Assembly (NCBI GenBank): GCA_038042445.1
Contig: JBBTED010000027.1
Coordinates: 37,651 to 101,650 of the forward strand
Length of the DNA stretch: 64,000 bases
DNA from: Candidatus Firestoneibacteriota bacterium
GTDB taxonomy: Bacteria; Oederibacteriota; D2-FULL-39-29; JBBTED01
Direction of reading: 5' to 3'
Below the pieces are notes generated by a model, which was not told the DNA's origin, ran no database searches, and saw only the letters and a list, made by a program, of their open reading frames with translations. Of this stretch, positions 37,999-44,019 are shown in pieces. A program made the position numbers and the translations under genes. Positions within the stretch are counted from its first letter, which is position 1. The number at the start of each line of letters is the position of its first letter.

Positions 37999-38250
37999 TT
38001 AATTACATCCACAGCCTTTTTCTGCATCATCATTAAATGCTTCAACACTTTTAATTACTGTTGAAATAACCTTGTCCATTTTACCCATTGCACCTTTTCT
38101 TACCATCTTTCCTACTTCTATTGCTTCCTCAATTTCCTGTTCATTAGCTCCATTTTCTTTTGCCTTACTGACATGATAGTTTAAACAAGGCTGACAATTT
38201 GCAGTAACCGATGCACCAATTGCTATCAATTCTTTAGCTTTATCGTCCAT
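37999..38250 (-). CDS. Carboxymuconolactone decarboxylase-family (AhpD-like) small protein with CxxC
   Basis: LIAIGASVTANCQPCLNYHVSKAKENGA is an AhpD-like CxxC...H core. Confidence 0.6.
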   Translation of the reverse strand: MDDKAKELIAIGASVTANCQPCLNYHVSKAKENGANEQEIEEAIEVGKMVRKGAMGKMDKVISTVIKSVEAFNDDAEKGCGCN

Positions 38251-38270
38251 AACACCTCTCCTTTTAATTT

Positions 38271-38969
38271 TTACGATCTTGAGAATTCTGCTTTAGAAAA
38301 TATATGAATATTGGAATTAGCCAACAAATTCGTAGTTGTAATTATTGCTGCTATAATATATTTTTTTACAGCTAATTCCTCTTCTTTAACACCAAAACCA
38401 GGCATTGATGGTCCGCATATATAAAAATTTGCACCTAAATCTTCCAGAATTGCTATAGTCTCTTCAGGGACAGGCCATCCTATTTGATTTTTCAGTATTT
38501 TTTTTACGAGTCCAGTAAAAAGAATACCACTAAATCCTGAAAGTTTTGAGTGATAATCTTTTTTTAACAGCCGCACACCTGCTCCTTCAAATACAATATT
38601 TACTTCCATTCCCAATACAGCTGCAGCTAATGCCTTACAAAAAGGTAAAAGCACTTGTTCTAACCGAGCTGTAGAAATAATAACTGTCATTTTGTTATTG
38701 TTTTTCTTTTGTTCACCCTTCTTAATAAACAAACTTTGTTTGTTTTCTTCCTTTTTTTCTGAACCAAGGAAAATATGGCCTGTTAAATCACAAAATGTTT
38801 TAATGTCTGCAAGAATTCCTTTGTTATCTTTAATAATCACCTCTAAAGTCTCCCCTATTTTAAGATAATCCATTTCTTTAACAATTCTATATGCAACCAT
38901 ATCTGGCTTTAATGTTTTAGAGGTATCAATAATAGTTTTCTTTATTTTATCTTCAGCCATTATACTCAC
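38271..38969 (-). CDS. TusA-like / DsrE-DsrF-like fusion protein (sulfur relay-type)
   Basis: The N-terminal 75 aa have the TusA two-layer alpha/beta pattern (LEVIIKDNKGILADIKTFCDLTGH). The C-terminal 130 aa are DsrE/YchN-like (MTVIISTARLEQVLLPFCKALAAAVLGMEVNIVFEGAGV). Confidence 0.55.
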   Translation of the reverse strand: MSIMAEDKIKKTIIDTSKTLKPDMVAYRIVKEMDYLKIGETLEVIIKDNKGILADIKTFCDLTGHIFLGSEKKEENKQSLFIKKGEQKKNNNKMTVIISTARLEQVLLPFCKALAAAVLGMEVNIVFEGAGVRLLKKDYHSKLSGFSGILFTGLVKKILKNQIGWPVPEETIAILEDLGANFYICGPSMPGFGVKEEELAVKKYIIAAIITTTNLLANSNIHIFSKAEFSRS

Positions 38970-38998
38970 CTCCTTATTTAATTCTTGAAGTTAAATTT

Positions 38999-39301
38999 TT
39001 ATCCGCAACAACTAGTATTTTGTAAAGTTTTAGTTTTATCTGAACCACAACCGCAAGCTGCTTCTTGTCCTGTTAGTGCTGATATCATCATAGCAGCAGC
39101 ACATCCTACACCTACTTCTACAGATATAGCTTGTGCCTGACAATTTTTCTGACAGGCTCCACATTCCATACAATCTAAAAGATGAATAATCTCAGCTTTT
39201 TTATTTCTGATTTGAAAAACATTGTGCGGACAAACTTCTATGCATCTGCCACAACCTGTGCATTTGCTTTGTTCAAGTTCTAAAGTAGTTATAGTTTTCA
39301 T
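38999..39301 (-). CDS. hgcB: Mercury methylation ferredoxin HgcB (2x[4Fe-4S] with C-terminal cysteine tail)
   Basis: CTGCGRCIEVCP and the HgcB-diagnostic DCMECGACQKNC motifs. The C-terminus reads ...CGCGSD...SCCG (vicinal Cys tail). It is immediately downstream of hgcA. The start is placed at MKTITT (39301), preceded by AAGGGGTGA. Confidence 0.85.
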   Translation of the reverse strand: MKTITTLELEQSKCTGCGRCIEVCPHNVFQIRNKKAEIIHLLDCMECGACQKNCQAQAISVEVGVGCAAAMMISALTGQEAACGCGSDKTKTLQNTSCCG

Positions 39302-39314
39302 ATTATCACCCCTT

Positions 39315-40373
39315 TTATATAAACTTCCAAACAAATTGGATTATCCAAATACTCAGTGCTGTAACTATTCCAACTGCTATCCAGGGAATTACTGTTTTGA
39401 TTTCCTGACGCACACCATTAACAGAAGTATAAGTAGTGGCACCTGTAAAATTAAGTGCAATAAACGCTGAAGCTGAAACATTAGCAGCTAAAAAAGGTAT
39501 GAACTGCCAGATGGACATAGGCAAAATTAAACTAATTACTAATGCTTGCAAAAATCCCCAAAAGGCACCTTTTGTAGTCAACCATTTCCCAGGCAAAATA
39601 TTATGCAAAACTGGAATTGCAATACCTGTAATCATAATACCAGCTATACTTAAAGCTATAGTAGGGCCAGTAACAAACCATAATATAATAGTAGCCAGTA
39701 AAACAGGTAGAAAAACAAATCGTAATTCCATAGGAATCAAAATAACTCTCTCTGCTAAATTAAATGTAACCAAACGCATAGATGAAGTAACCCTGCCAGT
39801 ATCCAAAAAAGCAGGCAAATCTTTGGCACGTACTGGTCCATAAACTACACGGAATCCTGTTTGTTTTTCAACTTCATGCGATGCAACTCCAGGTGCACCT
39901 AATTGTTGAACAATTAACCTGTGATGCTTGACTTTTTTTTCTAATTCTGATGTTTGAACACGTCTTACGATTTCTTCAGTTCCAAAAGTACCCTTACCAG
40001 CCGCACACCAGACATTAATGCCTTTAGTATCCAGAACTAAAATCCATGCATTGTCCCCTTCTAAATTTTTTCTTAAAACATCAAAACTCATACGATAATT
40101 AGCAGATACTAATACAGGTGAATTTTCATCTGGAGTACCCAATGCCCAAAGTCCAGGTGTAACAATAGCATTCATACGCCCTATTCCCCATCTGTATTTC
40201 CATTGATTCAAAGTATCATAAAAATCAAAATGACTATCTGTTTTGTATATTCTTGTCTGTGACCAAATCTTTGTCTTTTCAGACTGATCTGTACTATCCG
40301 GATATTCAATACCATTTATATCTATCCCAGTTACATTACTTAATATATTAGTTACAGCAGTTTTTCTATTCAT
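39315..40373 (-). CDS. hgcA: Mercury methylation corrinoid protein HgcA
   Basis: GINVWCAAGKGTF matches the HgcA cap-helix signature N(V/I)WCA(A/G)GK. The CFeSP-like corrinoid domain is followed by a C-terminal domain with four to five TM helices. The start is placed at MNRKTAV (40373), preceded by AAGGTGA. The longer track ORF overlaps the upstream gene. Confidence 0.85.
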   Translation of the reverse strand: MNRKTAVTNILSNVTGIDINGIEYPDSTDQSEKTKIWSQTRIYKTDSHFDFYDTLNQWKYRWGIGRMNAIVTPGLWALGTPDENSPVLVSANYRMSFDVLRKNLEGDNAWILVLDTKGINVWCAAGKGTFGTEEIVRRVQTSELEKKVKHHRLIVQQLGAPGVASHEVEKQTGFRVVYGPVRAKDLPAFLDTGRVTSSMRLVTFNLAERVILIPMELRFVFLPVLLATIILWFVTGPTIALSIAGIMITGIAIPVLHNILPGKWLTTKGAFWGFLQALVISLILPMSIWQFIPFLAANVSASAFIALNFTGATTYTSVNGVRQEIKTVIPWIAVGIVTALSIWIIQFVWKFI

Positions 40374-42662: not shown

Positions 42663-42701
42663 AATTATCAGTAAATTTTTACACTATTTAAGGAGGAAAT
42701 T

Positions 42702-43085
42702 ATGCCGTTTTATTCAGAAAAAGTAATGGAACATTTTCAGAATCCACGAAATGTAGGAGAAATAAAAGACGCTGATGGTATTGGAGAAATTGGAAATCCT
42801 GTTTGCGGGGATATGATGACTTTTTATATAAAAGTTAAGGATAATATTTTGGAAGATGTAAAGTTTAAGACATTTGGATGTGGAGCAGCTATTGCTGTTT
42901 CGTCAATGGTAAGTGAAATGGGAAAAGGAAAAACATTAGATGAAGCATTAAAAATAACAAATGCATCAGTTGCTCAGGAACTCGGCGGACTTCCACCGAA
43001 TAAAATGCATTGCTCAAATCTTGGTGCAGATGCATTACACAAAGCAATAGAAAATTATAAGAAAAAACAAGGAGGCACGAAATGA
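42702..43085 (+). CDS. iscU: Fe-S cluster assembly scaffold IscU/NifU-like
   Basis: GNPVCGDMM...FGCGAAIA...HCSNLGADAL carries the three conserved Cys and the LPPVK-like region of IscU. Confidence 0.9.
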   Translation: MPFYSEKVMEHFQNPRNVGEIKDADGIGEIGNPVCGDMMTFYIKVKDNILEDVKFKTFGCGAAIAVSSMVSEMGKGKTLDEALKITNASVAQELGGLPPNKMHCSNLGADALHKAIENYKKKQGGTK

Positions 43086-43255
43086 AAGAGAAAAAATGCA
43101 AATGCCCTTTTTGTGAAGGTGAATTATTATTTAAATGTGTTGCTCCTGTTTTTTGCGAAAATTGTGCGATAACACTTCTAAAATGCAAAAAATGCGATAA
43201 TTTATTCAATGAGAAATTAAAAATTTGCCCAAAATGTGGAGAGAAAAATGACTGA
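43082..43255 (+). CDS. Small zinc-ribbon protein (57 aa, four CxxC pairs)
   Basis: MKEKKCKCPFCEGELLFKCVAPVFCENCAITLLKCKKCDNLFNEKLKICPKCGEKND. It is not in the ORF track because it is under 60 aa. Its start overlaps the iscU stop (ATGA). Confidence 0.45.
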   Translation: MKEKKCKCPFCEGELLFKCVAPVFCENCAITLLKCKKCDNLFNEKLKICPKCGEKND

Positions 43256-43742
43256 AGAAAATTCACCTGTACAAATGAAAGATAAAATGACAATAATTTT
43301 ATTTTCAGGAGAATTAGATAAAGCAATTGCAGCATTCACACTTGCTACAACTGCTGCAGCCAGTAATATGGAAGTAAGCATATTTTTTACATTTTGGGGA
43401 TTAAATACTTTAAAGAAAACAACCTTTGTACCTGCAAAACCACAAATGATAATGCAAAAAATGCTGAATTTTATGAACCGGGGTTTACCACTTTCACGCC
43501 TTAATATGTTTGGCTTAGGACCATGGATGATGAAGAAACTTATGAAAAAAACCAAAATGGCATCTTTAGAAGATTTAATGAAACTTGCAAAACAATTGAA
43601 TGTAAAATATATTGCTTGTACAACAAGCTGCTCAGTAATGGGACTATCCAAGGAGAGTTTAATTAGTGACGTTAATGAATTTGCAGGTGCATCAACTTAT
43701 CTTGCAGAGGCTAAAGATGCAAAAGTAAATTTATTTATATGA
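43248..43742 (+). CDS. DsrE/DsrF/YchN-like protein
   Basis: MTIILFSGELDKAIAAFTLATTAAASNMEVSIFFTFWG is the DsrE-family N-terminus. The start is taken at ATG 43248, because the track ORF begins at an upstream GTG. Confidence 0.6.
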   Translation: MTEENSPVQMKDKMTIILFSGELDKAIAAFTLATTAAASNMEVSIFFTFWGLNTLKKTTFVPAKPQMIMQKMLNFMNRGLPLSRLNMFGLGPWMMKKLMKKTKMASLEDLMKLAKQLNVKYIACTTSCSVMGLSKESLISDVNEFAGASTYLAEAKDAKVNLFI

Positions 43743-43764
43743 TTTATTTAGCAAAGCTTATGCT

Positions 43765-44019
43765 TTGCATCTACAAAAAATAATAAATATTATGAACATT
43801 ACAAAATCACTGGATTGTATTGGCCTTTTTTGCCCTATGCCTGTGGTTAAAACTCAGCTTGAACTTGAAAAGATGCAATCAGGTGAAATTCTTGAAATCA
43901 CAGCAGATGACCCAGGCTTTGAAAAAGATTTACCTGCATGGTGCAATATGACCGGAAATAAATTCCTTGAAATAAAAAAAGAAGGCAACATCTTAAAAGG
44001 CTACGTAATAAAATTGTAG
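43765..44019 (+). CDS. tusA: TusA-like sulfurtransferase
   Basis: LDCIGLFCPMPVVKT carries the CPxP active-site motif. The true start may be the internal MNITKS (43792). Confidence 0.75.
   Translation: MHLQKIINIMNITKSLDCIGLFCPMPVVKTQLELEKMQSGEILEITADDPGFEKDLPAWCNMTGNKFLEIKKEGNILKGYVIKL

Follow-up and report, generated by a model that had tools for sequence, protein, structure and literature searches.

A divergent hgcAB locus in a Candidatus Firestonebacteria genome, with candidate thiol-based accessory proteins linked to metalloid methylation

Layout of the hgcAB locus

The subject of this study is the gene pair hgcAB, which encodes a corrinoid methyltransferase and a ferredoxin, together with the genes that surround it in a metagenome-assembled genome (MAG) of Candidatus Firestonebacteria (assembly GCA_038042445.1). 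The window, by which the whole stretch of DNA analysed is meant, comprises 64,000 nucleotides of contig JBBTED010000027.1 (positions 37,651 to 101,650) and has a GC content of ~31%. Six open reading frames (ORFs) lie on its minus strand from 41004 down to 37999, in the order hgcC, the gene for a small Cys-rich membrane protein (Mem99), hgcA, hgcB, the gene for a fusion of a TusA-like with a DsrE-like domain (the fusion), and the gene for a small AhpD-type protein. Beyond a divergent intergenic region of ~380 bp the plus strand encodes an IscS/NifS-like protein, an IscU scaffold, a zinc ribbon-like protein, a DsrE2-like protein and TusA (Table 1). The initial annotation of this DNA had read the two gene sets as a dedicated thiol/persulfide relay wrapped around hgcAB. 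All of the ORFs that it named were found, with family matches far above chance; its gene list was incomplete, since hgcC and the Mem99 gene, both located 5' of hgcA, were absent from it.

Table 1. Features of the window (positions are counted from its first nucleotide).
Feature	Position	Strand	Remarks
AhpD/CMD CxxC protein	37999..38250	-	83 aa; PF02627 3e-13; last gene of the operon
TusA-like/DsrE-like fusion	38271..38960	-	ORF reaches 38969; 229/232 aa; N-terminal TusA-like, C-terminal DsrE-like
hgcB	38999..39301	-	2x[4Fe-4S] ferredoxin; NF040864 110.8 bits (cutoff 99), match from residue 12; ORF reaches 39334
hgcA	39315..40373	-	Corrinoid methyltransferase, C-terminal membrane domain; NF040863 369.4 bits (cutoff 275)
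Mem99	40403..40702	-	99-aa Cys-rich membrane protein; between hgcC and hgcA
hgcC	40699..41004	-	AbrB/MazE-type DNA-binding; NF040962 110.2 bits (cutoff 70); PF04014; first gene of the operon
Sigma-70-like promoter match	41052..41080	-	TTGACA-17-TAAAAT; 5' of hgcC; 11/12 positions, best site of the region; a consensus match alone
16-bp palindrome	41225-41240		GC-rich, perfect
IscS/NifS-like protein	41386..42612	+	PF00266 1e-78; ORF reaches back to 41332
IscU/NifU Fe-S scaffold	42702..43085	+	TIGR03419 208.7 bits (cutoff 187.9)
Zinc ribbon-like protein	43082..43255	+	57 aa; four CxxC motifs; weak zf-ChsH2 match
DsrE2-like protein (DrsE_2)	43236..43742	+	PF13686 162.6 bits, 9e-48
TusA	43765..44019	+	84 aa; PF01206 87 bits vs 28.6; intact CPMP (LFCPMP)
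DNA alkylation repair gene	37264-37986	+	PF08713, 217 bits
FAD-dependent oxidoreductase, split	34350-35544	-	PF12831; two overlapping ORFs
6S RNA	34124-34302	-	RF00013, 97.7 bits
tRNA gene	58326-58398	-
135-nt element, two copies	18512-18646; 23065-23199		Intergenic; 96% identical
179-nt direct repeat	11709-11887; 14563-14741		83% identity

The hgcA, hgcB and hgcC genes carry the hallmarks of their families. HgcA passes its equivalog cutoff and contains the cap helix INVWCAAGKGTFG, whose motif NVWCAAGK agrees with the N(V/I)WCA(A/G)GK signature and whose columns are invariant in the HgcA alignment. Its start was placed at the ATG at 40373 by reading the start and the upstream stop codons, and the kind of N-terminal CC/CU extension described by Haft (bioRxiv 10.1101/2022.07.06.499078) is absent from it. 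HgcB, the gene for which starts 13 nt past the hgcA stop, combines a score above its cutoff with two CxxCxxCxxxC motifs (CTGCGRCIEVC and CMECGACQKNC), a C-terminal Cys pair (...SCCG) and adjacency to hgcA. HgcC belongs by score to the family reported in PMC10349881; it has three CC motifs (ETCCD, MSCCK and KTCCICL), its true start is likely to be the ATG at 40995, and the Mem99 gene separates it from hgcA.

The stop codon of hgcC overlaps the start codon of the Mem99 gene (ATGA, 4 nt) and the gaps that follow measure 29, 13, 38 and 20 nt; in addition, the minus strand is free of terminator-like sites from 38000 to 41000. Taken with the promoter-like site 5' of hgcC, the short gaps, the start/stop overlap and the lack of an internal terminator-like site make it likely that the six genes are co-transcribed as a single operon. 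The placing of the fusion and AhpD genes in the operon of hgcB was thus upheld, as they share its strand, follow at the last two of these distances and look co-operonic.

The AT-rich divergent intergenic region contains a perfect GC-rich palindrome, GTTCGCCTAGGCGAAC, present as a single copy in the window, which may be an operator. As a conserved nifS operator it was rejected, being missing from all other nifS and hgcA loci fetched save one contig (L179). This contig is also the sole other one with the same arrangement of genes; its DNA is 92% identical to that of the window, and it was discarded as independent evidence of conservation because it comes from the same species.

The plus-strand block

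The plus-strand genes were examined against the criteria of their families, and the calls of iscU, the zinc ribbon, the DsrE-like protein and a CPxP TusA were upheld (TIGR03419, PF13686 and PF01206). IscU has all three cluster-ligand Cys residues (PVCGD, FGCGA and HCSN), whilst TusA scores below the cutoff of the Escherichia coli-type equivalog PRK00299 (53 vs 78) and agrees with the family in its Pfam score and CPxP motif. The description of the first gene as a cysteine desulfurase did not survive. The fold and family scores are of that type (TIGR03402, 502 bits, under the cutoff of 530.75; PRK02948, 316.8 vs a cutoff of 304) and the Cys of the catalytic loop is kept (SGSACTS), but SSSLMYGPKG stands where PDB entry 9wep has SAHKMYGPKG and active enzymes have S(G/A)HK(x)YGPKG, so that the lysine that binds pyridoxal phosphate (PLP) is gone; Gln183, which contacts PLP, is replaced as well. 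The lysine is found in none of 43 aligned homologues from such blocks, and Gln183 is likewise replaced in them. Among the best PDB matches is IscS of Archaeoglobus fulgidus (4eb5, E 3e-120), which has no desulfurase activity owing to the same loss of lysine and gives a Cys ligand to the IscU cluster (PMC7585200). As the PLP-binding lysine is missing, the IscS-like protein is probably not a cysteine desulfurase.

The distribution of this block was studied in 80 metagenome loci (L097-L176) retrieved via the DsrE2-like protein and searched with all window proteins. A total of 2,741 homologues of the DsrE2-like protein pass E<=1e-10, and the 120 at the top of the list, which share 69-83% identity with it, come from Elusimicrobia, WOR-3, Poribacteria, Planctomycetota and others. 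TusA was found in 75 of the 80 loci, IscU in 59, the NifS-like protein in 56 and all four together in 47; of the 71 loci long enough to include a gene after dsrE2, 70 have TusA there, and in at least 35 loci the gene for the 57-residue protein is conserved at its place between iscU and dsrE2. HgcA, HgcC, Mem99 and the AhpD protein occur in none of the 80, of which 16 extend at least 2.5 kb past the nifS start on the side where the window has its hgc operon. The initial annotation had itself stated that synteny in relatives lacking hgcAB would reduce the plus-strand operon to a housekeeping module, and such synteny is what was observed; the operon is therefore not dedicated to hgcAB.

In composition the block is close to the minimal ‘MIS’ type of Fe-S system, to which DsrE2-like and TusA carriers have been added. 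As in the IscS-IscU pair of A. fulgidus and the MIS systems (PMC7585200, PMC13066941), an IscS-like protein without the catalytic lysine is paired with IscU; unlike those systems, the bacterial block is consistently extended by the zinc ribbon protein, the DsrE2-like protein and TusA. Since the two carriers constantly accompany the lysine-less protein, it is suggested that they may supply the sulfur that it no longer makes. No description of a block of lysine-less IscS, iscU, zinc ribbon, DsrE2 and TusA was found in the literature searched, and the observation is possibly unreported.

Neighbourhoods of hgcA

The window proteins were also compared by tblastn with hgcA loci, namely the best 80 of at least 590 in GTDB species representatives, taken with 10-kb flanks; the HgcA alignment mentioned above derives from the full-library search. 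HgcB was found in all 80 loci, HgcC in eight (immediately 5' of hgcA), the NifS-like protein in two, and IscU and the AhpD protein in one each, whilst the fusion, the DsrE2-like protein, TusA (E<1e-4) and Mem99 were found in none. One weak TusA-like match appears at a relaxed threshold (L072, E 9e-4), and a single locus, L050, has nifS and nifU within ~2 kb of hgcA. The co-occurrence of TusA, DsrE and NifS with hgcAB that had been put forward for comparative checking is thus not borne out, with TusA/DsrE-like genes in none of the loci at E<1e-4 and NifS-like genes in two; the accompanying remark that the arrangement is not canonical for hgcAB is confirmed by the counts for the fusion and the AhpD protein.

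The two ORFs 3' of hgcB were also classed by Pfam family in an unbiased census of 76 loci, and this neighbourhood proved highly variable. The commonest families are LMWPc (6) and SBF/Acr3 (5), and none of DsrE, TusA and CMD is among the 25 most frequent, with small genes slightly undercounted (the AhpD gene of L083 was missed, an antisense ORF having been taken in its place); the tblastn counts are free of this effect. Across the 80 loci ArsR-like genes were found in 28, Acr3 in 11, LMWP-ArsC in 11 and ArsM in 5-6. The census hence reproduces the published association of hgcAB with arsenic resistance genes (McDaniel 2020, PMC7438021; Gionfriddo 2022, bioRxiv 10.1101/2022.10.17.512643; Zhang 2023, PMC10349881). 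In Pseudodesulfovibrio mercurii ND132, according to the account of the Gionfriddo work given in PMC10349881, an ArsR-like regulator controls hgcAB and the transcription of hgcAB is altered by arsenic. The operon of the window is like the published loci with ars genes or an AbrB(PrlF)-type regulator (NF040962) in that HgcC precedes hgcA-hgcB and the neighbours are drawn from the arsenic-resistance gene pool; it is unlike them in having no arsR, acr3, arsC or arsM and in carrying the fusion, the AhpD-CxxC protein and Mem99 instead.

The Desulfosporosinus MAG locus with the weak TusA-like match (L072:7150-9958) has selD, a long yedF (TusA-like, CPIP) and a class-V aminotransferase gene, 26% identical to the NifS-like protein of the window, seemingly directly 5' of hgcA, as read from ORF motifs alone. 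If so, these genes form a selenium-utilisation set beside hgcA. Many HgcA proteins are reportedly selenoproteins.

The TusA-like/DsrE fusion

Both domains of the fusion are supported by profile and structure. It matches PF02635 (DsrE, 1e-8, 35.7 vs a cutoff of 22.7), PF01206 (TusA, 29.4 vs 28.6 bits) and also DrsE_2, and falls far below the DsrE2 equivalog NF047629 (24.5 vs a cutoff of 210). An AlphaFold2 model (pLDDT 91.9, pTM 0.88) gave Foldseek matches to the DsrE-like structure 3pnx (probability 1.0), to 2qs7 and DsrEFH, and to TusA (3lvj_C). The TusA-like domain, however, has LKPD (T-L-K-P-D) at the CPxP position; the family consensus there is W-K-P-Y, with the Lys nearly invariant in 74 members. 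Conserved Cys residues lie elsewhere: C185 in the DsrE domain is invariant and C60 in the TusA-like domain nearly so (232-residue numbering), and the former aligns with a Cys of the DrsE_2 protein of the window. The label of TusA-like/DsrE-like fusion is accurate for both folds, but the active-site Cys by which TusA is defined is replaced by Lys, and the protein therefore cannot be a classical TusA persulfide relay.

Two known systems invite comparison. The fusion shares its two folds and the conserved Cys at the DsrE position with the TusA/DsrE2/DsrE3 cascades (Metallosphaera DsrE3A-DsrE2B-TusA, PMC4175335; sHdr sets, PMC11094781), and the adjacent plus-strand TusA and DsrE-type genes are also like them; unlike these cascades, the fusion has the Lys that makes a Cys-to-Cys relay via TusA impossible, and neither set of the window is accompanied by hdr or dsr genes or by genes of sulfur oxidation. 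YedF of selenium metabolism (TIGR03527) is likewise a two-domain protein of ~200 residues with an N-terminal TusA-like domain and handles a soft chalcogen, and a yedF-selD pair seemingly lies 5' of hgcA in the Desulfosporosinus locus; the fusion differs in having no match to TIGR03527, and the CPxP Cys is kept in YedF.

These results bear directly on the reading from which the work set out, in which NifS would make persulfide that the DsrE2-like protein, TusA and the fusion pass on, for the supply or removal of Hg-thiolates or for the HgcB clusters. The two operons are adjacent and share the ~380-bp divergent region with its unique palindrome, the TusA-like fold of the fusion could dock on the IscS-like protein as in the IscS-TusA complex (PMC2854127), and L050 provides one hgcA locus with nifS and nifU close by. 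The plus-strand block, on the other hand, is syntenic without hgcAB in every one of the 80 loci inspected, TusA/DsrE-like genes near hgcA amount to the one weak L072 match among the 80 hgcA loci, the NifS-like protein probably cannot make persulfide from cysteine, and the fusion has no TusA active-site Cys. The synteny result largely refutes such a relay, which is now highly improbable.

The fusion has 82 homologues of 40-66% identity, in Methanofastidiosia, Binatia, actinobacterial and other bins, and no match in 72,556 plasmids (tblastn); the family is named ‘predicted peroxiredoxin’ by JGI. The contexts of 11 were inspected. Classical ars genes surround the fusion in five independent ones, with the orders ArsR-ArsM-fusion (L006), ArsC-fusion-ArsR (L007), ArsA/ArsM/ArsR/ArsB surrounding the fusion (L009), ArsR-fusion-acetyltransferase-ArsR-Acr3-ArsC-ArsM (L011) and ArsR-ArsR-methyltransferase-fusion with ArsC and Acr3 near (L177). 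Two further contexts read PadR-methyltransferase (Cys-rich)-fusion-ArsM (L096) and AhpD-like-methyltransferase (Cys-rich)-fusion (L095), and contexts with ArsM or ars genes number six. In L006, L095, L096 and L177 the fusion gene stands immediately 3' of a methyltransferase gene on the same strand, the position that it has after hgcAB in the window, and four methyltransferases that neighbour the fusion pass the arsenite methyltransferase cutoff of NF008823. The relatives of the fusion thus point to arsenic/metalloid methylation and not to sulfur trafficking as such.

The methyltransferases of L095 (4708-5607) and L096 (785-1672), encoded directly 5' of the fusion, are 56% identical and have ~295 residues, an N-terminal CCGP, internal ACC and PGC, and CCNPLD; judged by these features, they are a distinct family. 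Their CCGP is similar to the PCUGP/CC motif that N-terminal extensions of HgcA are reported to carry.

The AhpD protein and Mem99

The AhpD protein has the family arrangement of E...CxxC...H within a CMD domain (E7...C19QPC22...H26; PF02627, 49.9 vs 23 bits; TIGR00778, 44.7 vs 27.8) and ends in a GCGCN tail. It is 55% identical to the product of the gene after hgcB in a Victivallis vadensis MAG and 46% identical to that of the AhpD gene of L095. The Victivallis locus (L083:177-5100) has the order ArsR, hgcA, hgcB, AhpD-CxxC, Cys-rich protein, CcdA-like ORF, LMWP-ArsC and Acr3; its AhpD protein carries a CCC tail, the Cys-rich protein has 223 residues with the C-terminal end GGCGPSSGGCGPSGCN, and the CcdA-like membrane ORF is named from a reading of its sequence alone. 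An AhpD-type CxxC module is also partnered with a metal(loid) methyltransferase in ArsM_AhpD_UU (NF041537), MduS (NF045649) and the arsenosugar-associated peroxidase-like family (TIGR04169). Unlike in ArsM_AhpD_UU and MduS, the AhpD protein of the window is free-standing, short, has the GCGCN tail, and lies beside a corrinoid and not an S-adenosylmethionine-dependent methyltransferase. Its scores against the GSU3128 family (39.5/110 bits), ArsM_AhpD_UU (43/510) and MduS (36.1/380) are far under the family cutoffs, the shared AhpD domain alone giving the match, so that it is not a member of any of the three.

Mem99 has the motif CVVCAPVC in its first hydrophobic segment and GCQC in its C-terminal tail, and matched nothing in Pfam (to E<=10) or NCBIfam. 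A transporter of the MerT/MerF/MerE type was considered and rejected for want of support from any Mer profile in these two collections; in its architecture alone, a C-terminal Cys pair together with the Cys motif of the first hydrophobic segment, Mem99 may recall the Mer transporters. Only two homologues were found in 5.8 billion proteins, one on the same-species contig L179 and the other, P0354, on a contig of 728 bp. In P0354 the membrane part continues in frame into MDKKKVVRESYGKIAQEQEG, which is 70% identical to the ArsM N-terminus of L096 (E 2e-7, pairwise BLASTP). This ArsM-like tail had no match in NCBIfam because it is too short.

Accessory proteins of metal(loid) methylation

The linkages described above form a network: hgcAB occurs with the AhpD gene (in the window and in Victivallis) and with the fusion (in the window), the AhpD gene occurs with a methyltransferase and the fusion (L095), the fusion occurs with ArsM or ars genes (six contexts), Mem99 occurs with ArsM (P0354), and hgcAB occurs with ars genes (in the literature and in the census). 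The network is most economically explained if these Cys-rich proteins assist in anaerobic metal(loid) methylation and have here become attached to hgcAB. On this preferred view the hgc operon represents the known association of hgcAB with arsenic genes in a form specific to the lineage, with thiol-based accessory proteins that metalloid methylation also uses. For the locus as a whole, it is considered somewhat more probable than not that two independent units share the divergent intergenic region, one a housekeeping Fe-S block and the other an hgcAB operon with accessory proteins of ArsM/ars contexts.

Under this two-unit reading the plus-strand block would serve the whole cell, the HgcB clusters included. 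The Firestonebacteria lineage would have attached to hgcAB the genes for Mem99, the fusion and the AhpD protein, which elsewhere travel with ArsM-type methyltransferases or ars operons. Mem99 may move or hold a thiophilic metal(loid) at the membrane by means of its CxxCxxxC and CxC motifs, and the AhpD protein may keep substrate-binding Cys residues reduced (the C-terminal CC of HgcB, or the Cys pairs of ArsM). The invariant Cys of the DsrE domain of the fusion would carry the metal(loid) itself or, alternatively, a persulfide by which it is captured, and the Cys-less TusA-like domain would act as a docking or adaptor module.

Several points weigh against this interpretation. The arrangement of hgcAB with the fusion was seen in this species only, and no classical ars gene (arsR, acr3 and arsC included) was found across the 64-kb window. 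Four of the 11 fusion contexts (L001, L003, L093 and L178) have no ars gene or methyltransferase and show nothing obvious or a copper/integrase island, and both this sample and that of the hgcA loci are limited. The scores of the AhpD protein against the models of ArsM fusions do not exceed its score against the generic model of the AhpD domain. The link of Mem99 to ArsM is known from the single 728-bp contig, where a stop codon may have been missed or the two genes may be neighbours and not genuinely fused. Lastly, the accessory roles are proposed from conserved residues and family chemistry.

A passenger origin of the fusion and AhpD genes is also conceivable, if unlikely: as parts of a generic cassette for thiol/peroxide stress, or of a mobile ‘soft-metal’ one, they would have inserted 3' of hgcB and be functionally untied to methylation. 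Fusion homologues with integrase neighbours or within an island of copper resistance (L003, L093 and L177), the variability of the neighbourhood 3' of hgcB and the peroxiredoxin name of the family are in keeping with such an origin. It accounts poorly for the tight gaps, shared strand and absence of a terminator-like site between these genes and hgcAB, for the repeated position of the fusion immediately 3' of a same-strand methyltransferase, for the AhpD homologue at the same place after hgcB in Victivallis, and for the independent ArsM link of each of the three accessory genes.

A further explanation holds that HgcAB is not primarily a mercury enzyme here and replaces ArsM in an ars-like metalloid pathway, the fusion possibly thiolating the methylated product. 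The ArsM contexts of all three accessory proteins would fit, as would the ArsR-like control and arsenic effect described for P. mercurii. HgcA and HgcB of the window nevertheless retain every feature of Hg-methylating orthologues, direct evidence of arsenic methylation by HgcAB is lacking, and arsR, acr3 and arsC are missing from the window; this explanation is regarded as quite unlikely.

In the literature searched, the fusion, the small AhpD-CxxC protein and Mem99 were not found described as components of hgcAB or ars systems. That the three constitute an unrecognised toolkit (Cys-less-TusA/DsrE fusion, AhpD-CxxC protein and Cys-rich membrane protein) common to ArsM-type methyltransferases and the corrinoid HgcAB is a bolder proposition, and a doubtful one at present.

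Other features of the window

The genes that flank the locus are unrelated to the hgc operon and the plus-strand block. They encode a DNA-alkylation-repair protein, an SDR, a class II aldolase and a split FAD oxidoreductase on one side, and a sialate O-acetylesterase-like protein and further carbohydrate genes on the other. The DNA alkylation repair gene is convergent with the end of the hgc operon, which may be coincidence. The two overlapping ORFs of the FAD-dependent oxidoreductase correspond to profile positions 1-158 and 244-416, and the split stems from a frameshift or an error of assembly, or marks a pseudogene. A 6S RNA and a tRNA gene lie elsewhere in the window; an Rfam search of 37000-45000 (E<=0.1) gave no match. 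The two copies of the 135-nt element have terminal inverted repeats (TTAGCCATTCTAA...TTAGAATGGCTAA) with GC-rich hairpins inside, and the element looks like a miniature inverted-repeat transposable element (MITE). The 179-nt direct repeat lies in or beside two large minus-strand ORFs and probably stems from paralogous domains.

Implications for HgcAB and minimal Fe-S systems

The comparison removes a false lead, in that the adjacent ‘cysteine desulfurase/TusA/DsrE’ operon serves general housekeeping. The block is of interest in its own right, as the pairing of a lysine-less IscS-like protein with DsrE2-like and TusA proteins in many anaerobic lineages bears on the source of sulfur in minimal Fe-S systems. 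What HgcAB does for the cell is an old question, and the clue offered by published work is a link to arsenic resistance in regulation and gene position. Three accessory genes, each of which leads independently to ArsM-type methyltransferases, turn this vague link into specific candidate proteins. If the toolkit proposed above were real, anaerobic metal(loid) methylation would have a common thiol/persulfide-based means of substrate delivery and product removal, and HgcAB of this lineage would operate within a detoxification pathway of the arsenic type.

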